This document shows, in pieces, positions 17,893 to 46,618 of a DNA stretch of 64,000 nt. Made by a program: the position numbers and the translations under genes. This DNA is from an uncultured Anaerolineaceae bacterium. GTDB lineage: Bacteria > Chloroflexota > Anaerolineae > Anaerolineales > Anaerolineaceae. The DNA is taken from NCBI GenBank assembly GCA_927443345.1, contig CAKMKJ010000039.1, positions 2,372 to 66,371 of the forward strand, written 5' to 3'. Under the pieces are notes generated by a model, which searched no databases, was not told the origin of the DNA, and saw nothing but the letters and a program-made list of their open reading frames with translations. The first letter of the stretch is position 1. The number at the start of each line of letters is the position of its first letter.

Positions 17893-17912
17893 TCTGGCCA
17901 CAAGGAGCCTTC

Positions 17913-18761: not shown

Positions 18762-18772
18762 CTAGCCCCGCG

Positions 18773-19435
18773 ATGGAAACCAAATCAGAAGCTGCCAGGC
18801 TCGTATTGACCCGCCTGCTGGATGCCTACGGCATGCCGACATGGCGTGACCCCCTGCCAGCAGTGGACGAACTGGTTTCCACCATCCTTTCTCAGAACAC
18901 CAACGATATCAACCGCGATAAAGCCTTCTTTGCGCTCAAGCGCCATTTTGCTGAATGGGAAGAGGTCAGGCTTGCCCCTGAAGCGGAGATCATTGAAGCC
19001 ATCCGCCCTGCCGGGTTGGCCAATCAAAAAGGTCCGCGCATTAAGGCGGTGCTTAACGAGATTTTCGCCGAGCGCGGCAATCTGGATTTGGGTTTTCTTG
19101 CAGAACTGCCGCTTGAAGACGCCCGCCAGTGGTTGTTGAAGTTTAAAGGCGTCGGGCGCAAAACCGCCGCCATCGTGCTGCAGTTCTCGCTCAACCGTCC
19201 TGCCTTCCCCGTGGATACCCATATCTACCGCATCACAGGCCGCCTGGGTCTGCGCCTCGAAAAGCTCAACCTTGAGCAGACTCATGACCTGATGGAGAAG
19301 CTCATTGATCCCATGGATTATTACGCCGGGCATCTCAACCTCATCCGCCTGGGACGGGAAATCTGCCATGCTGGAAAGCCCGATTGTTTACACTGCCCGG
19401 TCAACGATTTGTGCGAATATTACAAGAATCAGTAA
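18773..19435 (+). CDS. Endonuclease III-like HhH-GPD DNA glycosylase with [4Fe-4S] cluster loop
   Basis: 220 aa with the HhH motif FKGVGRKTAAIVL, a catalytic-region FPVDTH, and a C-terminal CHAGKPDCLHCPVNDLC. Confidence 0.8.
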   Translation: METKSEAARLVLTRLLDAYGMPTWRDPLPAVDELVSTILSQNTNDINRDKAFFALKRHFAEWEEVRLAPEAEIIEAIRPAGLANQKGPRIKAVLNEIFAERGNLDLGFLAELPLEDARQWLLKFKGVGRKTAAIVLQFSLNRPAFPVDTHIYRITGRLGLRLEKLNLEQTHDLMEKLIDPMDYYAGHLNLIRLGREICHAGKPDCLHCPVNDLCEYYKNQ

Positions 19436-31780: not shown

Positions 31781-33274
31781 TTAACCCTTGATTTCCGTCG
31801 ATCCCATCAAAAAGCGATCCACTTCGCGGGCTGCGCCGCGCCCTTCGCGGATGGCCCAGACCACCAGACTCTGGCCTCTGCGCATGTCACCAGCCGAGAA
31901 CACGCCGGGGATGCTGGTGCCGTAATGTTCGCCATCCGCCAACACATTGGAGCGTGCATCACGCGCCACGCCCAACTGTTCAAGCATTTGATCTTCGGGT
32001 CCCAAGAAGCCCATTGCCAAGAAGACTTCCTGCACCTGCCACACCTTCTTGGTGCCCGGAATTTCTTTAGGCGTCATGCGTCCGTTGGCGTCTCTGACCC
32101 ATTCCACCTGAACGGTGTGAGCTTCTTTGACATTGCCATTTTCATCACCCACAAAGCGTTTGGTGGTGATACTGAATTCTCGCGGATCATGCCCATAAAA
32201 CGCCATGGCCTCTTCCTGCCCGTAATCCACTTTTAGCACTTTTGGCCACTCCGGCCACGGATTGTCCGTCTGGCGCGCATGCGGAGGTTCCGGCAAAATT
32301 TCAAATTGGGTCACGCTGCGGCAGCCGTGCCTCAGCGAGGTGCCAATGCAATCGGTGCCTGTATCGCCGCCGCCGATCACCAGCACATCCTTGTTGCGTG
32401 CAGAAATGGTGACCGCATCTGCCTCGCGGTTCAAGCCGCCCAGCAGGTTGCGCGTGTTGGCGTGCAAAAAGTCCATGGCAAAGTGGATGCCATTGAGTTC
32501 GCGGCCTTCAACCTGCAGATCTCGGGGTTTGGTTGCGCCGCCGCACAAGACCACGGCGTCGTAATCTTTCACCAGCATGTCGGCAGGCATGTCTTTGCCC
32601 ACTTCAGTTTTAGTAACAAATACAATACCTTCATCTGCCAGCAGGTTCACCCGGCGCTCGACCACACTTTTATCCAGCTTCATGTTGGGGATGCCGTACA
32701 TCAACAATCCGCCGATGCGGTCAGCCCGTTCGAAGACGGTTACGCAGTGTCCGGCGTGGTTGAGCAAGTCAGCACAGGCCAACCCAGCAGGGCCGGAGCC
32801 CACCACCGCCACCGTCTTACCCGTCCGTTTAAGCGGCGGTTGGGGATGGATCCAGCCTTCTTCAAATCCTTTTTCAATGATGGCGTGTTCAATGGATTTA
32901 ATAGCCACAGGTGAAGTGACCAGCCCGGCTGTGCAAGAACCTTCGCACGGCGCGGGGCAGACTCTTCCCGTGAATTCGGGGAAGTTGTTGGTTTTCATCA
33001 GCCGTTCGAGCGCCTGCTTCCACAACCCGCGGTAGACCAGTTCGTTCCACTCGGGGATCAGGTTGTGAATGGGGCATCCAGATGCCATGCCGTTGATCAT
33101 GCTGCCGGTGTGACAGAAGGGGGTGCCGCAATCCATGCAGCGTGCGGATTGCCGGGTGAGTGCTTCTTCGGGGAAGGGTTGGTGAAATTCCTTCCAATGC
33201 AAAATACGTTCCTGAGGTGGAAAATCCGTCTGGTTCTCGCGACTGTAATCCATGAATCCGGTTGGTTTTGCCAT
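31781..33274 (-). CDS. gltD: Glutamate synthase (NADPH) small subunit
   Basis: 497 aa with an N-terminal Fe-S Cys pattern ([18 protein letters not shown]) and two dinucleotide folds ([21 protein letters not shown]). Confidence 0.92.
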
Positions 33275-33283
33275 GACTGCCTC

Positions 33284-36200
33284 TTAATTCCCGCTTACGC
33301 GCGAGAGTTCTTTGCTGTTCAGTTCAAACGCGGCTTTGACTGCCTCGTCTCCGCTCAAGCCAGCGGCTTTCACTTCTTCAAACGCTTTCAACATGCGCTG
33401 ATAATCTTGCGGAATAACCTTCACAAACATGGTTATGAAATGCATCCAGTCTTTTAAGATGCGCCCAGCCAGCGGACTGCCGGTCAAGGTTTGGTGCTTT
33501 TCAATCATAGATTTAACATCATTGATCTCAAATACATCCTGCAGCGGTTCGAGGTTGACCATTTCAAGGTTGCAGCGCGATTTGAAAGCGCCATCCCAAT
33601 CGATCACGTAGGCAATGCCGCCAGACATGCCTGCCGCGAAGTTGCGGCCGGTCTTGCCCAGAATGACCACGCTGCCGCCGGTCATATATTCACAGCCGTG
33701 ATCGCCCACACCTTCCACTACGGCTTTGGCACCGCTGTTTCGCACGCAGAAACGCTCACCGGCCAGACCACTGATGAAAATTTCACCTGAAGTCGCGCCG
33801 TAAAAAGCCACGTTGCCAATAATAATGTTCTCATCCGGTGCAAAAGGCGACCCCTTGGGCGGATAGACGATAATCCTGCCGCCGGAGAGCCCCTTGCCGA
33901 TGTAGTCGTTGGAATCCCCTTCAAGCTCCATAGTCACGCCGCGCGGAATGAAGGCGCCAAAGCTCAAGCCTGCCGAGCCCAGGCAGTGGATGTGAACTGT
34001 ATCATCAGGCAATCCTTCCAGACCATAACGCCGCGTCACGGCGCTGCCGACCTGCGAACCGATCACGCGATGCACGTTGCGCACGGCGATATCCACGGCA
34101 ACACGCTCACCGCGTTCGATGGCTGGTGTACATTTTTCGAGCAACACCTTTTGATCAAGCGATTTCTGCAAGTTATGCTGCTGCGGGGTGGTATAACGCA
34201 GCCCTACGGATGCATCCACTTCAGGGCGGTAAAGCAAGGCTGAAAGATCTATGCCGCTGGCTTTCCAGTGGTCCACGGCTTGTTTGGCTTCAAGTTTGTC
34301 GGTGCGCCCGATCATCTCATCAATGGTGCGGAAGCCGAGGATCGACATCCACTCACGCATTTCTTGCGCGATGAAATACATAAAGTTAACTACGTAAGCC
34401 GGGTCGCCCGCGTAATTCTTGCGTAGTTCAGGGTTCTGGGTGGCGATGCCTGTCGGACAGGTATCTTGATGGCAGACGCGCATCATCACGCAACCCAGCG
34501 TCACCAATGGTGCCGTGGCAAAGCCAAATTCTTCGGCCCCAAGCAGGGCGGCCACAATCACATCGCGGCCGGTTTTGAGCTGACCATCCGTTTCAACAGA
34601 AATACGGCTGCGCAGGTTGTTGAGCACCAGGGTTTGGTGGGTCTCCGCCAAACCGAGTTCCCAGGGCAGGCCGGCATGTTTGATGCTGGTCTGTGGTGAG
34701 GCGCCAGTGCCGCCGTCGTGTCCGCTGATTAAGACCACATCCGCGCGCGCTTTGGCCACTCCTGCAGCCACTGTACCCACGCCAACTTCAGACACCAGTT
34801 TGACGTTGATGCGCGCCTCGGGGTTGACGTTCTTCAAGTCGTTGATCAACTGCGCCAAATCTTCAATCGAGTAAATATCATGATGCGGCGGAGGCGAGAT
34901 CAAACCCACCCCCGGCGTGGAATGTCTGGTCTTTGCAATTTCAGGATAAACTTTGCGCCCGGGGAGCTGCCCTCCCTCGCCGGGTTTTGCGCCTTGAGCC
35001 ATCTTGATTTGCAGTTCGCGCGCATTCACCAGGTAATAACTGGTTACGCCAAAACGAGCGGAGGCCACCTGTTTGATGGCGCTGTTGCGAGAATCGCCAT
35101 TGGCGTCTATCTCATAGCGGGCGGGATCTTCGCCGCCCTCGCCAGTGTTGCTCTTGCCGCCGATGCGGTTCATAGCGATGGCCAGCGCTTCGTGAGCTTC
35201 TTTGCTAATCGAGCCGTAAGACATGGCGCCGGTCTTGAAGCGTTTGACAATGGCTTCCACCGGTTCCACTTCATCCAATGGGATGGGCGTCTCGGCCAAC
35301 TTGAAATCGAGCAGACCACGCAGGGTGGTGAGTTGAGTAGATTGATCATTGACCAAAGCCGAATATTTCTTGAATAAGGCATAATCATTATTGCGAGTGG
35401 CCTGCTGTAAATAATAAATGGATTCCGGGTTGAAAAGATGGTGTTCACCGTCTTCTCGCCATTGATATTTGCCTCCGGCATCCAGGGGTTCCAAATCACC
35501 AGGCCGCTTGGGGAATGCCTGCTCATGGCGCATGACCGCTTCACGGGCGATGACCTCAATGCCTGCGCCGCCAATGCGTGAGGGTGTACCGTTGAAATAG
35601 CGCTCCACAAATTCCTGATTCAGGCCGACGGCTTCATAAATTTGCGCACCGCAGTAGCTCTGAATGGTCGAAATACCCATCTTGGAGCACACCTTAATAA
35701 TGCCCTTGACCACGGCTTTGCGGTACTTTTGTGAGGCTGTACGGTAATCCATGTCCGTCAAAAATCCCTGGTCGATCATATCGCGGATGGTGTCAAAAGC
35801 CAGATAGGGATTGATGGCCACTGCGCCGTAGCCCACCAGTGTGGCAAAATGATGCACTTCACGCGGCTCGGCAGACTCCACCACCAGGCCAATGTGAGTG
35901 CGGGTTCCCTTGCCAATAAGATGATGGTGCAGCCCCGCCACCGCCAGCAGCACGGGGATGGCCGCATGTTCAGCGTCCACACCGCGGTCAGACAGAATCA
36001 GAATGTTGGCTTCGTCGTTGGCGATGATCTCATCCGCGCGGGCAAACAACCTCTCCAAACCCGCTTCAAGCCCTGGCCCTCCCTCTGCCGGGTTGAACAA
36101 AATCGGAATGGTCATGGTGTGGAAGTGCAGTCGGTTGAGGTGGCGCAGTTTCTCAAGCTTTTCATTCGTCAGAATTGGGTTTTTGAGTTTGATCTGTCGG

Positions 36201-37924
36201 CAGTTTTCAGGCCGCGGTTCCAGCAGGTTCTGCTCCGAGCCGATCATGATCTCGGTGGCAGTCACAATCTCTTCGCGATTGGCGTCGATTGGCGGATTGG
36301 TCACCTGGGCAAATAATTGTTTGAAATAATCAAACAACAGCACCGCTTTGTCAGAAAGCACTGCCAGAGGTGTGTCGTTGCCCATCGAGCCGATGGGTTC
36401 CACGCCATTCTTGGCCATCGGTCCGATGATGACGCGTAAATCTTCATAAGTGTAACCAAAGGCGCGCTGACGTTTGAGCACATCCTGACTGCGTTCGTAA
36501 CCTTCCTTTTTGCGCTCCACTTCGAGGTTAACAGGGTCAGGCAGGTCTTCAAGGTTGATCAAAAATTCATTCAACCACTTTCGGTAAGGTCTGGCAATTG
36601 AGATGTTGTGTTTGATCTCTTCATCGCTAACAATGCGTCCTTCTTCGGTGTCGACCCACAGCATACGTCCGGGTTCGAGACGGCCTTTTTTGATCACATT
36701 TTCAGCGGGCACATCCAGCACACCCACTTCAGAAGCAAGGATTACGCGGTCATCGCTGGTGACGTAATAACGTGAAGGCCTCAATCCGTTGCGGTCAAGA
36801 CAGGCGCCGATGCCAACGCCGTCGGTGAAGACCATAGAGGCGGGTCCGTCCCAGGGTTCCATCAGCGAACTGTGATACTCATAGAAGGCTTTCTTCTCTT
36901 CGCTCATGCTCTCGTGCTTTGACCACGGTTCAGGAATCATCATCATCATGGCTTCAGGCAGGGTTCTGCCCGCCAGCACCAGCAATTCAAGCACATTGTC
37001 GAAAATGCCAGAGTCCGACCCATCAGGGTTGATCACGGGCAGCACCTTTTGCAGGTCATTGCCAAAGCGGTCAGAATGGAATTTGGTCTGCTGTGAATTA
37101 AGCCAGTTGACATTGCCGCGCAGTGTATTGATCTCGCCGTTGTGTGCCAGCATGCGGTTGGGATGCGCCCGATCCCATGACGGGAAGGTGTTGGTTGAAA
37201 AACGAGAATGCACCATCACCATGGCGGTTTCAATGTCAGGGTCTGAAAGATCAGGGAAGTACGCCTCAACCTGTTTGGAGGTTAACATCCCCTTGTAGAC
37301 CAGGGTTTTGTAAGACATGCTGCAAACATAAAACTGGTCGCCGCCGGCCATCTCTGAGTAGCGGATGGTGTGTTCGGCACGTTTGCGGATGACATAAAGT
37401 TTACGTTCAAAAGTCATGCGGTCTTTAATAGTCTTGTTGCGCTCCACAAAAAGCTGTCGGATCACTGGCTGGGCGGCTCTGGCAGTGGGGCCAAGTGTGC
37501 GGTCATCCGTGGGGACGGTGCGCCAACCCAAAACGTGCTGCCCCTCTTCTTCACAGATCGCTTCAACGATACCTTCGAACTGATGACGCAGCGCTTCATC
37601 CTGCGGAAGAAACAACATGCCTACGCCAAAATAGCGTTCTCCCGGAAGGCTGAATCCCAACCTTGCGCTTTCGCGTTGGAAGAATTTGTGCGGCACCTGA
37701 ATCAAAATGCCAGCGCCGTCACCTGTATCCGTTTCGGAGCCAGTAGCACCGCGATGGGCTAAATTATCGAGAATGGTCAGACCCTGACCAATGATTTCGT
37801 GTGAGACATTCCCCTTAATATTCACCACAAACCCTGTACCGCAGGCGTCATGTTCAAACCGGGGATCGTAAAGCCCTTGTTTCTTGGGAGCGGTCAATTG
37901 GGGAAGTTCGCGTTCATTCATCAT
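33284..37924 (-). CDS. gltB: Glutamate synthase large subunit
   Basis: 1546 aa. It has the N-terminal amidotransferase Cys (HDACGTGFV), FMN and 3Fe-4S domains, and a GXGXG C-terminal domain. It lies 9 nt upstream of gltD. Confidence 0.95.
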
Positions 37925-38495
37925 GGTGAGTCCTTAATGATGCATTTTTGATATGACAAAAAGACCTGTTGGCAGGCGTCAATGTTTAGAACGTTTTGGC
38001 TCTAAATTGGGCTGGATTTGCGGTGCATGCCGAACAATGCAATAATACTTAGTGAAAAGGTGATCCTTCACCGTTCGTTAATAATATAATGGATTGTTTA
38101 TACCACTTTTTCAAGATGAAAATTTCGTTTTTTATGGAATTTTGATATATTGGGTAATGATTGTATGACTCATTTCTTCGGTTCGCCTTTCATCCAAAAA
38201 GCGCAATGGCTCACAAATAGCAATTTAGTTATTGGGTTGATTGTCACTCATAACAGGCATCCGGGGATATTCAAATTGACAGATGGCAGAATACTTCAAC
38301 ATCGATCAGCGTCATCAAAAGATACATCAGCCTGACTTGAAATGAAACTTTTTCAAACACTTCAATGACAAATTGAAAATTATTGGCTTTTGTACTTTTT
38401 CAGTGTGTTTCGTGTGGTAGTATGTTTGCTTCAGAGGTTATATTTCTGTTTTTTTCCAAAAGAAGATCTTCTTTGCGTCCTCGCGGACTTGGTGC

Positions 38496-38515
38496 ACCCG
38501 AGCGAAGCGAGTGGT
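38496..38515. repeat. Partial copy (module) of the interspersed repeat, copy C
   Basis: ACCCGAGCGAAGCGAGTGGT is identical to 4771-4790 in copy A, with similar flanks. The head hairpin of copies A and B is absent. Confidence 0.7.
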
Positions 38516-38640
38516 GTTGCGTCTTCCCTGGCACTTGCAGCCTCATCGTCCCGATGTCCTTCGGGAGGGCAAGTGTGCGAGAGATAAGGTTTTTCAAAAA
38601 CTTTGTGAAGACTTCGTGGTTAATGGTTTTTAATCAATAA

Positions 38641-38668
38641 AGCCCTGACGCATATCGCTATCAGGGCT
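38641..38668 (-). terminator. Stem-loop downstream of the SWIM gene
   Basis: AGCCCTGA (38641-38648) pairs with TCAGGGCT (38661-38668). On the minus strand it is followed by TTATTGATT. It starts 19 nt after the stop at 38687. Confidence 0.5.
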
Positions 38669-38686
38669 TATCCATTTCTATTGAGT

Positions 38687-38938
38687 TTAATTTGAAACTG
38701 CTACATCGATGGATTGAGTCATTCCGTTTAAAATAGATTCGAGCGACATTGTATGTACGCATCGATCATGCGTGATGAAGAATTCGCAGTCGCATTGCCA
38801 TTTTCCTTCTGTGTATGTTACTTCGTGTGAATTATTATCACCCTTCACGGTCACAGAGAACGTATGAAATTCAAAACGATCTCTTTCTTGCGCATAACGT
38901 TTTGCTTTTTCAATTTTGCCGATCATGCTGTAATCCAT
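38687..38938 (-). CDS. Small SWIM-type zinc-finger protein
   Basis: It has the CxCx9CxH signature (CDCEFFITHDRCVH). I moved the start to ATG 38938, with AAGGAG 11 nt upstream. The track start at 38989 is a GTG inside a strong hairpin. Confidence 0.55.
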   Translation of the reverse strand: MDYSMIGKIEKAKRYAQERDRFEFHTFSVTVKGDNNSHEVTYTEGKWQCDCEFFITHDRCVHTMSLESILNGMTQSIDVAVSN

Positions 38939-38975
38939 GTGATGTGGTTCTCCTTTGTTTGGTAAGGAAGATGTT

Positions 38976-39009
38976 AAAACAAAAGGCACGCGGAAATAAC
39001 GCGTGCCTT
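38976..39009 (-). terminator. Intrinsic-terminator-like hairpin in the leader of the SWIM gene
   Basis: On the minus strand, AAGGCACGCG-7 nt-CGCGTGCCTT (10-bp stem) is followed by TTTTGTTTT. It lies about 40 nt upstream of ATG 38938 and downstream of a candidate minus-strand promoter. Confidence 0.45.
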
Positions 39010-39104: not shown

Positions 39105-39123
39105 TAACAAATCCTTAACATAT

Positions 39124-39140
39124 TTAACAATTATTGTTAA
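39124..39140. promoter_or_regulatory. 17-bp palindrome in the divergent SWIM / response-regulator intergenic region (candidate operator)
   Basis: TTAACAAT-T-ATTGTTAA has perfect 8-bp arms. A second, weaker palindrome, ATTTGTCAATAACAAAT (39095-39111), overlaps the -35. A possible extended -10 for the plus-strand operon, TGCGATAAT, is at 39174-39182. Confidence 0.4.
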
Positions 39141-39220
39141 CAACTGAAAAAATCCGCAATCATCAACAAATTGTGCGATAATTAAACATTGAAACTAATC
39201 AAGAGGAGCGGCATCTTTCT

Positions 39221-39934
39221 ATGTCACCAGAAAAAATTCTCATCGTGGATATTGATTCAAAATCTATTTCGCTTTTGCGCCAGGTTTTGTCGTCAGCCGG
39301 GTTTGAAGTGATCAGCGCCAACAAACCAGACCGGGCATTGCAGTTGGTGACCGAAGAAATTCCCATCCTGGTCATCACCGAAGCCAGGCTGGATGGTACC
39401 CTGGACGGTTTTGGTCTGCTTCACGATATACGCGAAATTTCCAATATTCCTTTGATTATATTGTCTGAAAGACCCAACTCTGACGATGAACTGCGTGCGC
39501 TTGAAAACGGTGCGGATGATTACCTCCCCAAGCCCTTTGATTCGCGCATCCTCCTGGCACGCGTGAAATCCATCCTCCGCCGCAGCAAGAATACACCGGC
39601 CGCACCAGAGATCATCCAGTGCGGTTCACTCACCATCAACCAGGTTTCACGCCAGGTCAGCGTGGATGAGGTGGCTGTATACCTCACTGAAACCGAGTAC
39701 AACCTGCTGCTCGAACTTGCCAAACATCCAGATCAGGTCATGCTGCACGAACAGCTTCTGCGTGAAGTCTGGGGACCCGAATATCGTCACGAACTCGATT
39801 ATCTTCGTTCATACGTTCACATTCTGCGTAAGAAACTTGAAAAAACACCTTCTCAACCTGTCTTGATTGTCAGCCTTTCGGGCATTGGCTACAAGCTGGT
39901 TTCAAATCCTTCAACCAAAACCAAAGGCAAATAA
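39221..39934 (+). CDS. OmpR/KdpE-like response regulator lacking the phospho-acceptor Asp (Glu at that position)
   Basis: 237 aa. In the receiver domain, beta3 reads PILVITEARLDG where PDLxxLDxxLP is expected, so there is no Asp at the end of beta3. The conserved Ser (ILSER) and Lys (PKPF) are present. The winged-helix C-terminus is LRSYVHILRKKL...SGIGYKL. Confidence 0.8.
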   Translation: MSPEKILIVDIDSKSISLLRQVLSSAGFEVISANKPDRALQLVTEEIPILVITEARLDGTLDGFGLLHDIREISNIPLIILSERPNSDDELRALENGADDYLPKPFDSRILLARVKSILRRSKNTPAAPEIIQCGSLTINQVSRQVSVDEVAVYLTETEYNLLLELAKHPDQVMLHEQLLREVWGPEYRHELDYLRSYVHILRKKLEKTPSQPVLIVSLSGIGYKLVSNPSTKTKGK

Positions 39935-39937
39935 GCC

Positions 39938-41227
39938 ATGGATAGCGACGGCTCCTTTAACCTCTTTGAAATGGCACAAAAGCAGTTTGACCGTTGTGCA
40001 GACTTGCTCGATCTTGAGCATCCTGTTCGCGAGTTCCTGCGGCTGCCCATGCGCGAAACACAGTTCAGCCTGCCCATCAAACTGGATACTGGAGAGTCAA
40101 AGGTATTACGCGGTTTTCACGTGCAATTCAACGACAGCCGCGGACCGGGCAAAGGCGGTGTGCGTTTTCACCCTGCCCAAACCCTCGACACCATCCGCGC
40201 CCTGGGCATGTGGATGACCTGGGAAACCGCCATTGTCAACCTGCCCCTGGGCGGCAGCGCCAGCGGTGTGGCTTGCGACCCGCACAGCCTTAGCCCATTT
40301 GAAATGGAACGCATCTGCCGCGGATTTGTGCGTAAGGTCGCCCATCAATCCGGCCCCGATTGGGATGTACTCGGCCCTGACATAATGACCGGCCCTCAGC
40401 ACATGCTGTGGATGCTGGATGAATATGAAACCATCGTCGGCCATAAAAGCCCAGGTTTCGTCACCGGCAAGCCTCTCCATCATGCAGGGTCGCAAGGACG
40501 CAAAGAAGCCCCGGGTTACGGGGTGATGATTGCCGTGCGTGAAGCACTCAAAGACATGGGTATTGCGGTTGAAAAGACCAGCGCCAGCATTCAAGGCTTC
40601 GGCCTGGTGGGCATGCACGCAGCGCAGCTTTATCACCAGATGGGCGGCACCATTCAGTGCGTGGCCTGCTGGAACCAAACCGATCGCACGACTTACGCTT
40701 TTCGCAAAAAGGAAGGGATTGATTATGACCAGCTCGTTTCAATCACTGACCGATTCGGCGAGATTGATAAACTCAAAGCCCTGTCACTCGGCATTGAGTG
40801 CCTGCCCGGCGACGCCTGGCTTCAGCAGGACGTAGACATTCTCGTACCAGCCGCACTCGAGAACCAGATCCGCGCTGATAACGTTAACCTGATCAGCCCC
40901 AAGGTAAAGATCATTGCCGAGGCCGCCAACGGCCCCACCAACCCGGTGGTGGACCCCGAATTGACCAAACGCGGCATCCTCATCATCCCCGATATCCTCG
41001 CCAATTCTGGAGGCGTTGTTTGCAGCTACTTCGAACAGGTGCAGAGCAACATGAACTATTTTTGGAGCAAGGATGAAGTCTTAAGCAAGCTGGATTCACT
41101 GATGACCTCGGCTTACATTGACGTCTCAACCTTTGCCAAAAAGAACAACACCACTACCAGAGATGCAGTCTACATGCTCGCTGTGGATCGCGTAGCGCGC
41201 GCCTGCCTCGATCGCGGTCTGATCTAG
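39938..41227 (+). CDS. Glu/Leu/Phe/Val dehydrogenase-family paralogue lacking the catalytic lysine (probable pseudoenzyme)
   Basis: 429 aa, starting 3 nt after the regulator stop. GPGKGGVRFHP, GFGLVG and ANSGGV are conserved. WMTWETA replaces WMTWKTA, and GGSASG replaces GGxKGG. Confidence 0.8.
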   Translation: MDSDGSFNLFEMAQKQFDRCADLLDLEHPVREFLRLPMRETQFSLPIKLDTGESKVLRGFHVQFNDSRGPGKGGVRFHPAQTLDTIRALGMWMTWETAIVNLPLGGSASGVACDPHSLSPFEMERICRGFVRKVAHQSGPDWDVLGPDIMTGPQHMLWMLDEYETIVGHKSPGFVTGKPLHHAGSQGRKEAPGYGVMIAVREALKDMGIAVEKTSASIQGFGLVGMHAAQLYHQMGGTIQCVACWNQTDRTTYAFRKKEGIDYDQLVSITDRFGEIDKLKALSLGIECLPGDAWLQQDVDILVPAALENQIRADNVNLISPKVKIIAEAANGPTNPVVDPELTKRGILIIPDILANSGGVVCSYFEQVQSNMNYFWSKDEVLSKLDSLMTSAYIDVSTFAKKNNTTTRDAVYMLAVDRVARACLDRGLI

Positions 41228-41243
41228 CCGCAGTCCTCCCTCC

Positions 41244-42971
41244 ATGATAAAGATTGCCGAGCATTTTCAATTATTATCCATGCGCCGCGTCTCCGAGTTG
41301 GAACGTATGGCCGTCGGCGATGGTCGAGAAGAGCTGGGCGGTAAAGCCCAGGGCTTGCTCTCCGTACATCAAACCCTGATCGAACTCGACCAATCTTCCT
41401 TCCCTGAGATCAAACTGGATATTCCCAAACTGACTGTACTGGGCACCAGTATTTTTGAAGCCTTCTTGAAGCGCAACGCGTTGGAAGATATCGCGCACTC
41501 CGGTCTTTCTGACGCGCGTATTGCCAATGCTTTTCAACGTGCAGATATGCCCTTTGAAGTACTTGGTAAATTGCGGGCACATTCAGACGCATGGAGGACC
41601 CCCCTGGCCGTCCGTTCCTCGGGGTTGCTTGAAGATCAGACTCACCGTCCCTTTGCCGGTGTCTATCTCACCAAAATGATCCCGAACAACCAACCAGACC
41701 CTGACACACGTTTTGCTAAATTGGTCGAGGCGGTCAAGTTCGTTTGGGCTTCAACTTTCTTCAAAATTGCACGAGATTACTGCCAGGCAACCGGTCTGGA
41801 TATCTGCCAGGAAAAAATGGCCGTCATTTTACAGGAAGTCATCGGCGGCCGCCATCACGATCGCTTTTACCCTGAGCTTTCTGGTGTTGCCCGTTCTTAC
41901 AACTTTTATCCGCTCAAGCCAGCCAAACCTGAAGACGGAGTGGTTAATCTGGCGCTGGGATTGGGCAAAACCATCGTAGACGGCGGACGCTGCTGGATCT
42001 ATTCACCAGCGTACCCCGAAATGCCACCGCCTTACGACTCAACCGACGAGCTGCTCAAAGAAACCCAGACCGATTTCTGGATGATTAACATGGGAGAACC
42101 GCCCGAGTTTAACCCCATCAAAGAAACCGAGTTTTTGCAGATCGAAAACCTGATGACCGCCGACAAAGACGGCACCCTCGCCCACCTGGCATCTACATAC
42201 GATCCAAAGTCTGAAAGAATGATGATCGGCACTGGCTCGAAGGGTATTCGCGCATTGACCTTTTCGCCCCTGCTGGTGATAAAGGTTATTCCCGTTAATG
42301 CGTTGATCAAGCGAATGTTGGCAAGCTGCGAAGCCAAACTCGGCTGCCCCGTGGAAGTTGAATTTGCCATGACCTTTGATCCGCCTCGCTTCGGTTTTCT
42401 GCAAGTACGCCCCATGGTAGTGCCCGAAGGCAACCTTGAAATCTCGGATGACGAAATGCAGAACCCCAAAGCCCTGGCCTCTTCTGAAGTGGTGCTGGGC
42501 AACGGCGTGGATGACGAGATCACCGACATTGTTTATGTTATTCCGGAATTTTTTGAACTGAAGAACACCCGTCTGATGGCTGAGGAACTTGAAGCGCACA
42601 ACCGCAGGCTGCTGGATGAAAACCGCAAATACCTTTTGATTGTCTTTGGCCGCCTGGGTACAGAGGATTCCTGGTTGGGTATCCCCGTTACCTGGGGGCA
42701 GATTTGCGGCGCCAGCGTGATCATTGAAGCTACCCAACAAAACGTCAAAGTGGAATTAAGCCAGGGGTCGCATTACTTCCACAACATCATCAACCTGGGC
42801 GTCAAACACTTTTCGATGCCATTCACCAGCCCCTATCGCGTGGATTGGGATTGGCTTTTGCAGCAGCCCGTTGAAAATGCCATGCACTTCACCCGCCACA
42901 CCAGGCTGACGGAACCCCTGCACATTAAGGTTGATGGCCGCCACGGCCGCGGCACCATCCACCACTCATAG
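41244..42971 (+). CDS. PEP/pyruvate-binding (PPDK_N-type ATP-grasp) domain protein without phosphohistidine swivel domain
   Basis: 575 aa, starting 16 nt after the GDH-like stop. GGKAQGL and LAVRSSGLLEDQTHRPFAGVY match the nucleotide-binding domain of PEP synthase/PPDK. There is no GGxTSHAAI-like motif. The C-terminal ~170 aa are unassigned. Confidence 0.7.
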   Translation: MIKIAEHFQLLSMRRVSELERMAVGDGREELGGKAQGLLSVHQTLIELDQSSFPEIKLDIPKLTVLGTSIFEAFLKRNALEDIAHSGLSDARIANAFQRADMPFEVLGKLRAHSDAWRTPLAVRSSGLLEDQTHRPFAGVYLTKMIPNNQPDPDTRFAKLVEAVKFVWASTFFKIARDYCQATGLDICQEKMAVILQEVIGGRHHDRFYPELSGVARSYNFYPLKPAKPEDGVVNLALGLGKTIVDGGRCWIYSPAYPEMPPPYDSTDELLKETQTDFWMINMGEPPEFNPIKETEFLQIENLMTADKDGTLAHLASTYDPKSERMMIGTGSKGIRALTFSPLLVIKVIPVNALIKRMLASCEAKLGCPVEVEFAMTFDPPRFGFLQVRPMVVPEGNLEISDDEMQNPKALASSEVVLGNGVDDEITDIVYVIPEFFELKNTRLMAEELEAHNRRLLDENRKYLLIVFGRLGTEDSWLGIPVTWGQICGASVIIEATQQNVKVELSQGSHYFHNIINLGVKHFSMPFTSPYRVDWDWLLQQPVENAMHFTRHTRLTEPLHIKVDGRHGRGTIHHS

Positions 42972-43006
42972 AACCGTAGGGGCGGGTCCGTGACCCGCCT
43001 GGTTTC
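42971..43006. repeat. Degenerate copy 3 of the GTAGGGGCGG palindrome family
   Basis: GAACC GTAGGGGCGGGTC CGT GACCCGCC TGGTTTC. The 8-bp core stem is GGCGGGTC/GACCCGCC. It lies directly after the stop of the ATG-grasp gene (the PEP-utiliser ATP-grasp gene). Confidence 0.6.
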
Positions 43007-43134
43007 ATGACCGTAGTGTTTTACATTTTCATCCGTTTTCATTAATTCTTAATTAACTCCTCCCTTTTTTTTAGCATTTCTTGACGCCCAATATGTTATA
43101 CCTTTTTAACTTTTCATTTCTCGGGAGGAAATCT

Positions 43135-44490
43135 ATGTCACTCATTCAAGATGTCATTTCACGTGTTCATGAGAAAGAAACCGGCCAGCCAGAATTTTTG
43201 CAAGCCGTTCAAGAAGTGCTCACTTCGTTGGAACCTACTGCGATAAAACACCCCGATTTTGTGAAGGCCAAGATTTATGACCGCATCGTTATTCCAGATC
43301 GCGCCATTCTCTTTCGTGTGCCCTGGGTAGATGATAGCGGCGAAGTTCAGATCAACCGGGGATTTCGCGTCCAGTTTAATAATGCCATCGGACCTTATAA
43401 AGGCGGCTTACGCTTCCATAACTCTGTGAACCTGGGAATCATCAAATTTCTCGGCTTCGAACAGATTTTTAAGAACTCCCTTACCACGCTACCCATGGGC
43501 GGTGCCAAGGGTGGTGCAGATTTTGACCCCAAGGGTAAGACAGACAACGAAGTCATGCGCTTTTGCCAGGCTTTCATGCGCGAACTTTATCGTCACATCG
43601 GCCCCAACACAGACGTCCCCGCCGGGGATATCGGCGTAGGCGGGCGTGAAATTGGCTTTCTTTATGGCTATTACCTCAAGATCGTCAACGCCAACAATAG
43701 TGTGCTCACCGGCAAGGGTCTTGAATACGGCGGAAGTTTGATCCGCCCCGAAGCGACCGGCTACGGCGCAGTTTATTTCGCCGCGGAAATGCTAGCCACC
43801 CGCGGTCAGCAGATCGACTCAAAATCTGCTGCAGTCAGCGGTTCAGGCAATGTAGCCCAATACACGGTTGAAAAACTCAACCAACTTGGCGCTAAAACCA
43901 TCACCCTGTCAGACTCAAACGGCACGATCGTGGATGAGGCTGGTATTGATACCGATAAACTTGAGTTTGTTTTCGAACTCAAGAACCACCGCCGCGGACG
44001 CATAAGCGAATACGCCGATAAATACAAAGTGCCTTACTATGCTGATAAAACCGTATGGGAAGTGATAAAGGAACAAAACTTAAAGGTTGACCTGGCTTTC
44101 CCCTCTGCGCATGAAAACGAAATCCACAAGGCTGAAGCTGAAGCCATGGTTAAAAATGGCTGCTATTGTATCTCTGAAGGTGCCAACATGCCCTCAGATC
44201 TTGAGGCTGTGCAGGTCTTCCTCGACAATCACGTACTTTACGGACCTGGAAAAGCTGCTAATGCTGGCGGTGTGGCCGTCAGCGGACTCGAAATGTCGCA
44301 AAATGCCATGCGCATGAGCTGGTCTCGCGAAGAGGTAGACCAAAAGTTGCAAGTCATTATGAAAAATATCCACGCTTCAACTCTTGAAGCGTCTGAAGAA
44401 TACGGCTGCAAGGGCAATTACGTGGTAGGCGCGAACATAGCCGGCTTTCTCAAGGTCGCCAAATCCATGTTGGCTTATGGTATCGTATAG
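43135..44490 (+). CDS. gdhA: NADP-type glutamate dehydrogenase (E. coli GdhA-like, canonical motifs)
   Basis: The start is set at ATG 43135, with GGGAGG upstream. GPYKGGLRFH, FKNSL, GGAKGG and DVPAGDIGVGGRE are all present. Confidence 0.92.
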   Translation: MSLIQDVISRVHEKETGQPEFLQAVQEVLTSLEPTAIKHPDFVKAKIYDRIVIPDRAILFRVPWVDDSGEVQINRGFRVQFNNAIGPYKGGLRFHNSVNLGIIKFLGFEQIFKNSLTTLPMGGAKGGADFDPKGKTDNEVMRFCQAFMRELYRHIGPNTDVPAGDIGVGGREIGFLYGYYLKIVNANNSVLTGKGLEYGGSLIRPEATGYGAVYFAAEMLATRGQQIDSKSAAVSGSGNVAQYTVEKLNQLGAKTITLSDSNGTIVDEAGIDTDKLEFVFELKNHRRGRISEYADKYKVPYYADKTVWEVIKEQNLKVDLAFPSAHENEIHKAEAEAMVKNGCYCISEGANMPSDLEAVQVFLDNHVLYGPGKAANAGGVAVSGLEMSQNAMRMSWSREEVDQKLQVIMKNIHASTLEASEEYGCKGNYVVGANIAGFLKVAKSMLAYGIV

Positions 44491-44611
44491 ATTAAGAATG
44501 TTTTTGGGGCGTTGCGTGCCACGCCAATATGTTTTTTATAAGACTCCGGCAGAATTGAAGTCTGCGGGGTCAGTTCAATATAAAGAATAATGTCGTTCTC
44601 AAACGTGAGGG

Positions 44612-45202
44612 CTATGTTTTAGATTCTTTAATCTGCTCCAGCTTTAACAATATTTTATCCATTTCTTCAAAGGCCCCTGGTATCACACATCGATTTCGAA
44701 TTATTTTTCTCGGTTGGAAATCATTTTCAACAAAATCCATTGCCTGACTGCGATCTTCTTGAAAGCAGTAGACAGGGTTTATACCAAAAACCACAAGACT
44801 TCCATCACATCTTTTTTTGATTTTGTCTACATGCAACAGTCGATATTCGTAGAAATGTGTAAAACCATAATCAAACTCGTAGCCTACCCAAAGCCGCCTG
44901 AAAAAAACAACATGATCAGGTTTGATTAAAAGGTAGCTTTGCTTTAAAAGAGATCGCTGGACAAAAAAAATAATAATCGGGACTGATTTTAACAATAGAG
45001 CATTTATTAATAACATGAGCAAAAAATCCACCAGCAAGGAACCAACACTCTGACTCACTATGCGGCTATTGGCAATGATCTTTTCAAACAAGCGGAAAAG
45101 TAAAATTCCATCTAGCAAGAGAGAAGGAGATAAAGAAATCCACAACCATAAAGGGGGTTTCTTAAGAAAAGCCCGATGATCAAGTAAGAGTTTTTTTGAC
45201 AT
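44612..45202 (-). CDS. Hypothetical membrane protein
   Basis: 196 aa with two or three hydrophobic segments. GC is very low (hand-counted lines are about 32-37 %). I recognise no family. Confidence 0.4.
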   Translation of the reverse strand: MSKKLLLDHRAFLKKPPLWLWISLSPSLLLDGILLFRLFEKIIANSRIVSQSVGSLLVDFLLMLLINALLLKSVPIIIFFVQRSLLKQSYLLIKPDHVVFFRRLWVGYEFDYGFTHFYEYRLLHVDKIKKRCDGSLVVFGINPVYCFQEDRSQAMDFVENDFQPRKIIRNRCVIPGAFEEMDKILLKLEQIKESKT

Positions 45203-45217
45203 CCAATTAATTATCCA

Positions 45218-46618
45218 TCATTTTATTATTGCTTTTTGAGATTTCACAAACGCTATCACCGTCCTGCTGATATCTTCTTCGGTCGTAGCCCACGAACATA
45301 CACTCACCCTGATCACAGGCGTGTTACACCATTTGCCGCTGCCACACCAGCACTCCCCGGACTGCTGAAGATTTCTCAATGTGGAGGCTGTCTCATCAGG
45401 TGTACCGCAAGTTATCAGCACCTGGTTGAAAACCACATCATTCAAAACCTTGAATCCTTCGGCCTTAATCTCGTCTGCAAATTGGGACGCACGCTCGCAT
45501 AGACCATCTACCAGTTCTTCGACGCCGCGCTTGCCCAACAGTTTGAGCGTCGCCCACAACTCCACCGCACGACCCCGGCGCGACATATCGGGCGAATACA
45601 ACATGCCATCGCGCTGGTCACTATAGAGGATGTAATCTCCGTTGGCCTGCATGGCGGTGATCATGGCGTTGCGGTCTCTGCAGATCACGATGCCGCAATC
45701 ATAGGGCGTGTTGAGCGTTTTGTGCCCATCCACTGACCACGAATCCGCTTTTTCCATGCCTTTGGTCAAATAGCGTTTACTCTCTGAAGCCGCAGCCCAT
45801 AAGCCGAATGCGCCATCCACATGCACCCAGGCACCGGTTTTATTCGCCATATCGCATAATTCATCTATCGGGTCAAACGAACCTGAATTCACATTGCCTG
45901 CCTGCAAGATCAGCAGCGTGTTGCCATCCAGCTGCGGAACCAAATCCACGCGCATGCGGCCCTGGTCATCCACTGGTACGAGTTCCACCCGATCTTTACC
46001 CAGCCCTAAAATCGCCAATGCTTTAAACACCGAGCTGTGAGCTTCAGCGCCAACCACCACGCGAATAGGCGGCGCGCCAAAGAGACCTTTGGTGTTGACA
46101 TCCCAACCGGCACGGCGCAGCAATTCGTAGCGTGCGGCGGCAAAACCCGCCATCGTCGCCATGGATGTTCCACTAACCAGCCCCATAGCGCAATCTTTTG
46201 GCAAGCCGAGCAGTTCGTTCATCCACTGCTCGCACACGGATTCCAACTTGCCCATGATCGGCGAGGTCACATATAACGGCGCAAGTTGGTCCCATACATC
46301 CGTCAGCCACTTCACAGCCATCACCGGCGCGAAGGAGCCGCCCACCACCAGCCCAAAGTATCTGCCACCTGTAGTGGCTACTGTCGCCGGGGACCCGTAG
46401 TCATGCAGCAGCTTCAATATTTTGTTAGGATCATCCGCTTCAATTGGCATGGGTTCGTCGAAGTGCTTCAGATTTTGCAGCGCCTGCTCATTAGGATAAA
46501 CCTCACGTTCAAAAACACCGCCCAGGTAATCAAAGGCATAATCTTTGGCTTGTTCAAACATCGCTCGATCTTTTGCCAGCTTATTCATTCTGGTCTGAAG
46601 ATTTTTTGATACCGCCAT
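45218..46618 (-). CDS. Pyridoxal-phosphate-dependent decarboxylase (group II fold)
   Basis: 466 aa. VHVDGAFG and the SVDGHKTLNTPYDCG lysine motif are typical of group II amino-acid decarboxylases. The substrate is unknown. Confidence 0.7.
   Translation of the reverse strand: MAVSKNLQTRMNKLAKDRAMFEQAKDYAFDYLGGVFEREVYPNEQALQNLKHFDEPMPIEADDPNKILKLLHDYGSPATVATTGGRYFGLVVGGSFAPVMAVKWLTDVWDQLAPLYVTSPIMGKLESVCEQWMNELLGLPKDCAMGLVSGTSMATMAGFAAARYELLRRAGWDVNTKGLFGAPPIRVVVGAEAHSSVFKALAILGLGKDRVELVPVDDQGRMRVDLVPQLDGNTLLILQAGNVNSGSFDPIDELCDMANKTGAWVHVDGAFGLWAAASESKRYLTKGMEKADSWSVDGHKTLNTPYDCGIVICRDRNAMITAMQANGDYILYSDQRDGMLYSPDMSRRGRAVELWATLKLLGKRGVEELVDGLCERASQFADEIKAEGFKVLNDVVFNQVLITCGTPDETASTLRNLQQSGECWCGSGKWCNTPVIRVSVCSWATTEEDISRTVIAFVKSQKAIIK

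Follow-up and report, generated by a model that had tools for sequence, protein, structure and literature searches.

The gene cluster at 39221-42971 of the window (the whole 64,000-nt stretch of DNA from an uncultured Anaerolineaceae bacterium analyzed here) is a reduced, Anaerolineaceae-specific form of a widespread and uncharacterized module linked to glutamate dehydrogenase (GDH), for which we found no literature description. The conserved core of this module is a GDH gene paired with a gene for an ATP-grasp protein (P1), and not the trio of regulator, GDH homologue, and ATP-grasp protein put forward in the preliminary description. The module probably controls nitrogen assimilation. Our preferred reading, held at slightly below even confidence, is that the GDH homologue, predicted to be catalytically dead, works with P1, as a non-catalytic partner, to control glutamate/ammonium assimilation post-translationally, by a mechanism that we infer, with the regulator acting only on transcription.

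Organization of the cluster and its control region

Three co-directional genes make up the cluster, with gaps of 3 nt (regulator/GDH homologue) and 16 nt (GDH homologue/P1); coordinates and gaps are as first described. The genes and their context are as follows.

31781-37924, minus strand: gltB (33284-37924) and gltD (31781-33274), glutamate synthase, context genes (Pfam)
38687-38989, minus strand: divergent small gene with a weak SWIM-like match, conserved in loci L003-L008 (Pfam, synteny)
39221-39934, plus strand: OmpR/PhoB-type response regulator with a pseudo-receiver (Pfam PF00072 and PF00486, KdpE alignment, orthologue comparison)
39938-41227, plus strand: GDH homologue of the small hexameric (T. 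maritima/archaeal) type (Pfam, alignments, dN/dS)
41244-42971, plus strand: P1 (575 aa), dikinase-type ATP-grasp with a new C-terminal domain (Pfam, AF2 model, Foldseek)
43135-44490, plus strand: canonical NADP-type gdhA with GGAKGG (Pfam, NCBIfam)

Residue alignments and domain searches agree that all three proteins are non-canonical, as had been claimed, and alignment to KdpE and to Lys-bearing GDHs restored neither the catalytic Lys of the GDH homologue nor the acceptor Asp of the regulator. The setting between gltB-gltD and a canonical gdhA also stands: Pfam confirms gltB and gltD, and gdhA, which is probably the catalytic GDH of the cluster, scores 721 bits against the NCBIfam NADP-GDH equivalog cut-off of 536. 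The divergent gene, earlier called a SWIM-finger gene, reaches only 18 bits, under the Pfam cut-off of 19.6, and is probably 83 aa long with its start at ATG 38938.

Three elements were located in the noncoding DNA.

39115-39140, no strand: TTAACA-N3-TTAACA direct repeat overlapping the perfect palindrome TTAACAAT-T-ATTGTTAA (candidate operator)
39171-39184, plus strand: TTGTGCGATAATTA, invariant in the window and six relatives (alignment of relatives)
42980-43000, plus strand: core stem of a GC-rich hairpin just 3' of the P1 stop (extended 42966-43010), without a U-tract (folding)

The hairpin that was thought to close the unit is real (core stem: -24.5 kcal/mol, z = -3.5), but it lacks a U-tract and is not called as a terminator, and so is not a canonical one. 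Because a terminator-like site is found instead 3' of gdhA (44508-44525), gdhA may belong to the same unit as the three genes. The upstream region had been described as palindrome-rich; it holds one perfect 8+8 palindrome (39124-39140), but only one, and this is not conserved in the closest relatives. At the place equivalent to the TTAACA repeat, relatives carry ACGATT-N5-ACGATT. The invariant TTGTGCGATAATTA is probably the extended -10 of the operon promoter.

The GDH homologue has lost its catalytic lysine but stays under purifying selection

The GDH homologue has the ELFV_dehydrog_N (PF02812, 8e-44) and ELFV_dehydrog (PF00208, 1e-60) domains. Two alignments bear out the original observation of a missing catalytic Lys: wmtwKta..ggGKGg of T. 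maritima GDH corresponds to wmtwEta..ggSASg, and FKNSL..GGAKGG of the window's gdhA to WETAI..GGSASG, so that the catalytic Lys is replaced by A108 and the second substrate Lys by E96. The protein also falls under the NCBIfam GDH equivalog cut-off (best model NF040817, 399 bits vs. 750), and from its active-site residues we predict that it is catalytically dead. It keeps the GxGxxG NAD(P) motif, the PDI Asp, and the ANSGGV motif; across its clade the dinucleotide motif QGFGLVG is invariant, and of the motifs only this NAD(P) one is kept uniformly. The homologue would probably still bind NAD(P)(H). It is closer to 3aoe_A (E = 1e-89), which we take to be the catalytic GdhB of Thermus thermophilus, than to 3aoe_E (6e-65), presumably the inactive GdhA, and for this reason its loss of Lys is independent of that in Thermus GdhA.

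The catalytic Lys is missing in all 120 best homologues (63-97% identity). In Anaerolineae it is replaced by M, then S, then A, and across loci by M, S, A, E, N, F, or Y, a variability that would suit a functionless relic carried along beside P1. This reading is scarcely credible: dN/dS is 0.022 for the GDH homologue, as low as for the active gdhA (0.027) and compared with 0.049 for P1, which effectively refutes it; its 97% identity to L006 exceeds that of the other proteins of the cluster; and more than 120 homologous clusters are intact, with NAD(P) and fold motifs invariant. Purifying selection acts strongly on the dead GDH, which is about as constrained as true gdhA. In a neighbor-joining tree Lys-bearing forms are basal and there are at least two separate Lys-less clades. 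An active-site comparison of Lys-less and Lys-bearing module GDHs found systematic differences only at the catalytic Lys and three further positions, and about 50 subfamily-specific invariant positions are common to both.

P1 joins an intact ATP-grasp domain to a new C-terminal domain

Pfam finds PF01326 (PPDK_N) alone in P1 (6e-33; residues 29-393 of 575, nt 41328-42422). GGK34, R124-S-S, E371-x-E373, and Q387-x-R389 are invariant, and the catalytic Lys, Arg, Glu, and Gln of a dikinase ATP-grasp are all present; we take the motif residues to correspond to PPDK K22 and R337. The AF2 model (pLDDT 86) matches in Foldseek the ATP-binding domains of rifampin phosphotransferase, PEP synthase, and PPDK (E from 4e-14 to 1e-7). 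P1 is swivel-less, as had been noted, with PF00391 and PF02896 both absent; for the phospho-His swivel (PF00391) there was no Pfam match at E = 10, no PDB profile match, and no Foldseek match, and Pfam returned no acceptor-binding domain (PEP/pyruvate TIM barrel or equivalent). The remainder of the protein forms one further feature.

42441-42968, plus strand: new C-terminal domain of P1, residues 400-575 (175 aa) (alignment, domain and structure searches)

This C-domain, present in 1697 cluster representatives, has the invariant motif GRxG..LGxP..E..SxG[ST]H[YF]F, the His being H510 in P1. It had no Pfam match at E = 10 and no PDB sequence-profile match, and Foldseek found no counterpart in the PDB (best E = 0.02, TM < 0.3). 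That H510 has a phospho-His role is guesswork, because the domain has no recognizable fold. No GDH-P1 fusion occurs among the 150 best C-domain representatives. Fusions of P-family paralogues to receiver domains are frequent. Neither the GDH homologue nor P1 matched the PADLOC anti-phage defence models.

The conserved core is the GDH-P1 pair

A synteny survey of a genome collection gave at least 585 matching stretches, and we fetched and analyzed 80 loci from among them. The module GDH is directly followed by P1 in about 67 of these 80 loci, from ten or more named phyla. The arrangement regulator-GDH homologue-P1 does recur, in 21 fetched loci and often with the 3-nt gap, but only GDH and P1 form the core: the regulator is missing from roughly half of the Lys-less loci, and other phyla pair P1 with a Lys-bearing GDH and no regulator.

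In loci from outside Chloroflexota, the GDH next to P1 still has its Lys and is presumably active, the regulator is missing, and the gene order is Lys-bearing GDH, P1, P2, and a convergent metallophosphoesterase gene. P2 is a 1060-aa paralogue of P1 that consists of an N-terminal region, PPDK_N, a P1-type C-domain, and a Pol-beta-type nucleotidyltransferase. P2 and the phosphoesterase make a modification cycle plausible, yet both are absent from the window.

GDH and P1 genes are tightly packed in Anaerolineae (median gap 12 nt vs. 84 nt). Such coupling, together with intact ATP-grasp residues and the lack in P1 of an acceptor-binding domain of its own, could indicate a two-protein metabolic enzyme, with P1 as a split dikinase or ATP-grasp ligase and with the GDH homologue as the subunit that binds a small-molecule substrate (such as 2-oxoglutarate, glutamate, or a nucleotide), analogous to phenylphosphate synthase, itself a split dikinase. 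We consider this unlikely, as the partner is a fully canonical GDH in other phyla, the substrate-binding Lys residues decay once the catalytic Lys is lost, and receiver-fused P-family paralogues fit signalling better than metabolism.

A Lys-bearing GDH was found in the fetched DNA of 29 of 45 Lys-less loci vs. 1 of 24 Lys-bearing loci (Fisher P = 5.6e-7, inflated by shared ancestry, most Lys-less loci being from Chloroflexota). In most Anaerolineaceae loci gdhA lies about 100 nt 3' of P1, and outside the Anaerolineaceae group a canonical gdhA is followed by another PPDK_N gene in six of the seven evaluable loci. This usual adjacency would suit a hetero-oligomer in which the dead GDH co-assembles with the neighboring gdhA product as an allosteric regulatory subunit; in T. 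thermophilus the inactive GDH subunit GdhA works as a regulator of GdhB, in a complex to which an accessory protein that senses AMP also binds (PMC9570180). We regard it as very unlikely here: the two proteins come from separate GDH subfamilies and have 29% identity, which makes mixed hexamers improbable, the closest relatives L003-L005 have no adjacent gdhA, and the universal pairing with P1 would be left unexplained. The distance and strand of gltB vary among the loci with this gene in the fetched DNA (L008, L009, L013, L017, L027, and the window); in L013, L017, and L027 gltB/gltD immediately precede the regulator and share its strand.

The regulator is an optional, Asp-less addition

In a HMMER alignment E54 of the regulator aligns with the acceptor Asp of E. 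coli KdpE (in LIILDLGLP), which bears out the earlier reading of an Asp-less protein. S82, K103, and the winged-helix domain are kept; the acidic pair is D10-I11, and thus, although REC and Trans_reg_C domains are present, the protein lacks the acceptor Asp and acidic pair of a canonical response regulator. By its residues it is a pseudo-receiver, that is, a receiver fold without acceptor Asp (PMC4395418, PMC12632262), a class in which Glu takes the place of Asp more often than any other residue and can mimic the phosphorylated form (PMC12632262). No cognate histidine kinase adjoins the gene; the sole kinase-like match in the window is about 22 kb off. In Anaerolineales relatives, the Lys-less GDH stands with a canonical Asp-bearing regulator and a GAF-HisKA kinase immediately upstream, and the Asp/Glu state of the regulator matches the presence or absence of this kinase exactly, the Glu forms being precisely those without it. 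This shows that the regulator descends from a canonical GAF-kinase/Asp-regulator pair, and that this lineage lost the kinase and has Glu at the acceptor site. Because the Lys-less GDH coexists with that pair in Anaerolineales, the loss of Lys predates the loss of Asp, and the dead GDH therefore did not originate as the sensor of an orphan regulator. The regulator, with dN/dS = 0.066, is optional among Lys-less loci.

These results bear on the model originally proposed, akin to a trigger enzyme, in which the dead GDH senses a ligand and both binds and controls the Asp-less regulator while P1 provides an ATP-dependent modification. The 3-nt gap is kept in many loci, a regulator without kinase and Asp needs some other input or none, and the GDH homologue retains its NAD(P) motif and most pocket residues. 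We nevertheless find the model improbable, given how often the regulator is missing and that the Lys-less state, which coexists with a kinase/Asp-regulator pair in Anaerolineales, came first; moreover, the acceptor Glu may simply render the regulator constitutively active. The loss of the second substrate Lys (K to E) in the window's subclade further argues against the suggested role as a dedicated glutamate/2-oxoglutarate sensor.

A proposed role for the dead GDH and P1

We return to the reading of the dead GDH as a partner of P1. The ancestral role of P1 would have been post-translational control of GDH, P1 using ATP, possibly via the invariant H510, and acting on or with a GDH-type hexamer. 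A second, NADP-type gdhA may then have taken over catalysis, the old GDH, no longer catalytic, being kept to serve P1 as a scaffold or sensor subunit, and the pair would now modulate glutamate/ammonium assimilation, most likely the neighboring gdhA. The E54 regulator would be phosphorylation-independent, probably constitutively active-like, and an autoregulated activator of the operon; it would only drive transcription and not receive a signal from the GDH. It is from synteny that we infer a contact between GDH and P1, an ATP-dependent step, and the target. An inactive GDH subunit with a regulatory part has a precedent in T. thermophilus (PMC9570180). Several results count against this reading: no gdhA adjoins the pair in L003-L005, GDH-P1 fusions are missing from the 150 best C-domain representatives, and neither P2 nor the phosphoesterase is encoded in the window.

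A bolder and rather doubtful extension is that P1, P2, P3, the receiver-fused PPDK_N/C-domain proteins, and the metallophosphoesterase form an unrecognized ATP-driven system of covalent-modification or allosteric control of GDH, the target of which became a pseudoenzyme subunit in Anaerolineae. If true, this system would be to GDH, across ten or more phyla, what GlnE/GlnD is to glutamine synthetase, and Anaerolineae would have converted the original GDH target into a dedicated pseudoenzyme subunit of its regulator.

Comparison with known systems

PEP synthase, PPDK, rifampin phosphotransferase, and split dikinases share the ATP-grasp domain and catalytic motifs of P1; unlike them, P1 has no PEP-utilizers swivel or acceptor-binding domain and carries the new C-domain instead. 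The GlnE/GlnD nucleotidylylation cascade controls glutamine synthetase, and the full module likewise places P2, with its Pol-beta-type nucleotidyltransferase, and a phosphoesterase beside a central ammonium-assimilation enzyme; however, there is no homology to GlnE or GlnD beyond the nucleotidyltransferase fold, the target is putative, and the window encodes neither P2 nor the phosphoesterase.

In Bacillus subtilis, RocG/GudB and GltC exert trigger-enzyme control of gltAB, RocG being catalytically active and acting on the LysR-type regulator GltC. The proposed system would resemble it in that a GDH protein bears regulatory information for GOGAT and glutamate homeostasis, but the window's GDH is predicted to be dead and its regulator is an OmpR-type pseudo-receiver, dispensable in half of the loci.

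With Asp-less OmpR/PhoB regulators (such as ChxR) and the orphan nitrogen regulator GlnR, the window's regulator shares REC and winged-helix domains, an acceptor Glu, and the lack of a partner kinase (PMC4395418, PMC12632262, PMC3960148), although actinobacterial GlnR keeps the acceptor Asp, unlike the E54 regulator. In contrast to the ChxR/GlnR group, the transition is caught here, as sister lineages keep both Asp and the GAF kinase. The T. thermophilus system of GdhA/GdhB and AMP-sensing TTC1249 also has an inactive GDH paralogue beside an active GDH gene and a nucleotide-binding accessory protein (PMC9570180); it differs in that the window's inactive and active GDHs are of separate subfamilies, and that the accessory protein is a dikinase-type ATP-grasp in the window and a phosphoribosyltransferase homologue in T. 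thermophilus.

Gene layout and flanking sequence

The OmpR-type regulator (RR, 39221-39934), the GDH-like protein (39938-41227) and the 575-aa protein P1 (41244-42971) are encoded on the plus strand exactly where the preliminary description placed them, with gaps of 3 and 16 nt, and form an operon-like unit. RR carries the Pfam domains REC and Trans_reg_C, the GDH-like protein both ELFV dehydrogenase domains, and P1 PPDK_N as its sole Pfam domain (residues 29-393 of 575). The neighbours are also what they were taken for: gltB-gltD is a true glutamate synthase (gltB: GATase_2, Glu_syn_central, Glu_synthase, GXGXG) and gdhA a true NADP-GDH (NF006929, 721 bits vs. a cut-off of 536). Profile (HMM) searches and alignments bore out the three defects claimed for the cluster, namely an RR without its acceptor Asp (E54), a GDH without its catalytic Lys (A108), and a P1 without a swivel domain.

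The hairpin after the P1 stop codon is stable (-24.5 kcal/mol, z = -3.5), but a role as the terminator that closes the operon, as had been proposed, was rejected: it lacks a U-tract and was not scored as a terminator, and a terminator-like site is found instead after gdhA. The 16 nt ahead of the P1 start codon (CCGCAGTCCTCCCTCC) hold the complement of a Shine-Dalgarno sequence, not the Shine-Dalgarno sequence itself, and the GDH-like start is likewise without a clear ribosome-binding site upstream. Since the first ~25 residues of P1 are poorly conserved, its true start may be further downstream. Next to gdhA the window contains:

44612-45202, minus strand: ORF of 196 aa that has hydrophobic stretches, matches nothing in Pfam and separates gdhA from the decarboxylase gene
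45218-46618, minus strand: group II PLP-dependent decarboxylase (PF00282)

The decarboxylase gene, possibly one more gene for glutamate or amino-acid metabolism in this neighbourhood, is kept directly downstream of the cluster in the related loci L003-L007, and in L003-L005 it directly follows P1, with gdhA absent between them.

Control region upstream of RR

The region upstream of RR had been called palindrome-rich; it contains one perfect 8+8 palindrome only (39124-39140), which the closest relatives do not share. Six relatives (L003-L008) and the window have in common TTGTGCGATAATTA, likely an extended -10. In the same six relatives the direct repeat ACGATT-N5-ACGATT is present once, ~90-150 nt ahead of the RR gene in the -35/-60 region; an OmpR-type activator site would be arranged in this way, which suggests that RR may regulate its own gene through this candidate site. 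At the aligned position of the window (39115-39140), TTAACA-N3-TTAACA and a perfect 17-bp palindrome replace the ACGATT repeat, so that one candidate operator seems to have taken the place of another. The window RR is 87-90% identical to those of the closest four (L003-L006), yet the upstream repeat differs. The TTAACA repeat is perfect at 39115 only, with near matches at chance level, and the ACGATT repeat occurs once per relative locus, solely upstream of RR, with window matches at chance level. A common operator for the RR operon, gltB and gdhA was rejected because neither repeat recurs upstream of gltB or gdhA.

Between the terminator of a small SWIM-like gene and the gltB start lie ~760 nt without a convincing ORF (37925-38686), within which a sigma-70-like promoter is predicted (38114-38086, minus strand). 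Rfam at gathering threshold returned only one tRNA in the whole window and no match in this gltB leader. The 5′ end of the SWIM-like gene has one further feature:

38983-39009, minus strand: GC-rich hairpin of 10 bp with a T-run behind it

It overlaps the GTG start of a 100-aa ORF, lies upstream of a likelier ATG at 38938, and looks like a terminator or attenuator within the leader of the SWIM-like gene.

Conservation of the GDH and P1 pair

The P1 alignment was searched against one genome of each species and gave at least 585 matching stretches; 80 loci were retrieved for ORF/BLAST analysis. A GDH and P1 are paired in ~67 of the 80, and the conserved core is therefore GDH plus P1. Three arrangements were distinguished. 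Group C crosses phyla, its loci being named as Bacteroidota, Ignavibacteriota, Zixibacteria, Acidobacteriota/Aminicenantes, Gemmatimonadota (this one by a family name), Calditrichota, Planctomycetota, Fibrobacteraceae, and Alpha- and Deltaproteobacteria; its order is a Lys-bearing GDH (GGGKGG, GGSKGG or GGAKGG), P1, and P2, a ~1060-aa protein composed of an N-terminal region, PPDK_N, the same C-terminal domain (C-domain) as in P1, and a Pol-beta-type nucleotidyltransferase. A convergent metallophosphoesterase gene (~289 aa) comes next in 30 loci overall (group C plus some of group B). The full module was found outside Anaerolineaceae in:

L041, L045, L046 and L050-L083 (e.g., L060:6490-12862, L002:11248-15168)

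Group B (other Anaerolineales) has a GAF-HisKA kinase, an RR with Asp, a Lys-less GDH (K to M), P1, P2 and the phosphoesterase, with canonical gdhA 3-4.4 kb downstream and then a third PPDK_N paralogue. In Anaerolineaceae (group A, to which the window belongs) the order is an optional RR with Glu, a Lys-less GDH (S for K, with A in the subclade of the window), P1, and canonical gdhA ~100 nt downstream; P2 and the phosphoesterase are absent from the group, and neither was found anywhere in the 64-kb window. The fetched DNA includes gltB in the window, L008, L009, L013, L017 and L027, and in the last three gltB-gltD-RR-GDHlike-P1-gdhA is colinear with very short gaps. The median GDH-to-P1 gap is 84 nt for Lys-bearing and 12 nt for Lys-less GDHs. 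In 6 of the 7 evaluable loci outside group A, canonical gdhA has a PPDK_N gene of its own behind it, so two GDH subfamilies are repeatedly paired with the P family. A 995-aa PPDK_N protein with the His motif of the C-domain lies directly downstream of canonical gdhA in L050 (1011-3998, minus strand). Because the module is present in cultured Leptolinea tardivitalis YMTK-2 and Anaerolinea thermolimosa IMO-1, it is directly testable.

Loss of the catalytic Lys under strong constraint

In the alignment with T. maritima GDH, wmtwKta..ggGKGg reads wmtwEta..ggSASg in the GDH-like protein, and WETAI..GGSASG stands opposite FKNSL..GGAKGG of the window gdhA; in C. symbiosum numbering, E96 stands in place of K113, and A108 in place of the catalytic K125. 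The catalytic Lys is absent in all of the best 120 homologues (63-97% identity, those named being Anaerolineae), which read GGSSSG, GGSMGG or GGSASG, while the clade keeps the NAD(P) GxGxxG motif, the PDI Asp and the ANxGGV motif without exception. Such a protein could be a pseudogene or relic, but its dN/dS against the L006 orthologue is the lowest of the cluster (GDH-like: 0.022; gdhA: 0.027; P1: 0.049; RR: 0.066), which makes it the most conserved gene; we rejected this reading and give it practically no weight. The survey thus reveals that the catalytically dead GDHs make up a large clade, on which selection is no weaker than on the active enzyme. All members are currently annotated as "glutamate dehydrogenase", which will mislead metabolic reconstructions of Anaerolineae, organisms that abound in anaerobic digesters and sediments.

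Most Lys-less proteins retain the second substrate Lys (MTWK); some, the window's subclade included, have E, R, N or Q in its place, and no replacement was seen among Lys-bearing proteins with a readable motif. The substrate-binding constraint thus relaxes after catalytic death. The module GDHs are one subfamily, with ~50 private invariant positions common to Lys-bearing and Lys-less forms, between which the only systematic differences are at the catalytic Lys and three further columns. In a rough NJ tree, the Lys-bearing forms are basal, the Chloroflexota Lys-less proteins form a clade, and L056 (E), L062 (S) and L075 (N) form a separate nested Lys-less group, with L050 (M) apart, pointing to at least two independent losses. 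L062 (Aminicenantales by its record) has, 6 kb apart, a Lys-less copy (GGSSGG) beside P1 and one that bears the Lys, apparently the outcome of a separate, more recent duplication after which one copy was inactivated:

L062:1136-2533 and L062:8651-9937: two GDH copies of the same subfamily

A Lys-bearing GDH is found within the fetched DNA of 29 of 45 Lys-less loci, as opposed to a single one of 24 Lys-bearing loci (Fisher's test: P = 5.6e-7, ignoring phylogeny and with many "negatives" being truncated contigs). One might then expect the GDH-like protein and gdhA to form mixed hexamers, as in Thermus (PMC9570180); the two share only 29% identity overall, however, and we consider such hexamers very improbable.

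The regulator and kinase loss

The acceptor position of RR is E54, opposite the Asp of LIILDLGLP in E. coli KdpE (HMMER alignment), its acidic pair is D10-I11, and the conserved Ser/Thr (S82) and Lys (K103) are retained; by sequence it is a pseudo-receiver regulator. Glu is the commonest acceptor-position residue in pseudo-receivers and can be phosphomimetic (PMC12632262); an aspartate-less receiver class (PMC4395418) and ChxR (PMC3960148) have been described. RRs with the canonical Asp and a DD/DE pair have a GAF-HisKA kinase immediately upstream wherever upstream sequence exists, whereas no such kinase precedes any of the RRs with Glu and a degenerate acidic pair (Asp-bearing L015, L016 and L039, at contig ends, being left out), so the Asp-less state is derived and coincides with kinase loss. 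The sequences place the loss of the RR Asp after that of the GDH Lys. These loci form a natural series from a two-component regulator to an orphan pseudo-receiver upon kinase loss. The sole histidine-kinase-like sequence in the window (16315-19435) is ~22 kb from the orphan RR, and is 29% identical to the L002 GAF-HisKA kinase over the kinase core.

Conservation of the trio held in part. In 21 loci, which all seem to be Chloroflexota, an RR orthologue lies 1-3 nt upstream of a Lys-less GDH, but RR is optional: it is absent from about half of the Lys-less loci having enough upstream DNA (including L001, L014, L018-L021, L023, L024 and L028). The preliminary description had the GDH-like protein sensing a ligand and signalling to RR, which we regard as unlikely.

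P1 and its C-terminal domain

The AlphaFold2 model of P1 (54 homologues) is confident (pLDDT 86). Foldseek finds its structural counterparts in the ATP-binding domains of rifampin phosphotransferase, PEP synthase and PPDK, with E values of 4e-14 to 1e-7. Because the dikinase ATP-grasp residues are invariant (GGK34, R124-S-S, E130-D131, E371-x-E373, Q387-x-R389), P1 most likely binds and uses ATP. P1 has neither a swivel nor a PEP/pyruvate domain, and we consider it unlikely, to about the same degree as signalling to RR, that the GDH-like protein and P1 constitute a split dikinase acting on a small molecule.

The last 175 residues of P1 are a domain of their own, in which the motif GRxG..LGxP..E..SxG[ST]H[YF]F is invariant. 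Its SQGSHYFHN followed by a helix locally resembles the swivel GGxTSHAAI, but neither Pfam at E = 10 nor a PDB sequence profile gave a match, and the best Foldseek match of the stand-alone model (pLDDT 88) had E = 0.02 and TM below 0.3. We therefore rejected a recognisable, if diverged, phospho-His swivel of PEP-utilizers; P1 remains swivel-less and its C-domain is new to the PDB. A phospho-His role for the motif His, H510, is speculation. The C-domain profile matched 1697 cluster representatives among 1.84 billion (clusters at 50% identity), in 580-aa proteins of the P1 form, ~1000-aa proteins with weak receiver (Response_reg) and DUF5752 matches in the N-terminal half before PPDK_N and the C-domain, and ~1640-aa proteins read as P1-P2 fusions, one with two PPDK_N stretches (long forms from representatives P0252, P0311, P0329 and P0241). 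No GDH, and hence no Rosetta-stone GDH-P1 fusion, occurs in the best 150 representatives, and membership in a defence system was rejected, as PADLOC had no match for the GDH-like protein or P1. GDH synteny gives this orphan family of ~1,700 clusters a functional context.

Proposed mechanism and relation to known systems

We propose that GDH hexamers are the partners or targets of P-family proteins, whose action would depend on ATP. By analogy with GlnE and glutamine synthetase, the nucleotidyltransferase and phosphoesterase of the full module could plausibly form a reversible covalent-modification cycle. In Anaerolineae, the original GDH partner may have become a non-catalytic scaffold or sensor for P1, the chemistry would be done by the NADP-type gdhA, and the E54 regulator would merely drive transcription. 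As a whole this proposal is tentative, with a probability somewhat short of even.

GDH stands at the carbon-nitrogen branch point, and to our knowledge very little is known of its post-translational control in bacteria. NCBIfam, PADLOC and the open-access literature yielded no description of GDH pairing with PPDK_N/C-domain proteins, of the P2/phosphoesterase extension, or of the Lys-less GDH clade, and the open-access literature nothing relevant on PPDK_N with GDH, on DUF5752, or on Anaerolineae GDH with a dikinase. We consider it possible, but less likely than not, that the module amounts to a separate and new control system for GDH. Its single elements are known, and pseudoenzyme-based regulation and pseudo-receivers are known kinds: the GDH-like protein has its analogue in the inactive regulatory GDH subunits of Thermus, the window RR in aspartate-less OmpR-type regulators, and the P1 ATP-grasp in those of dikinases.
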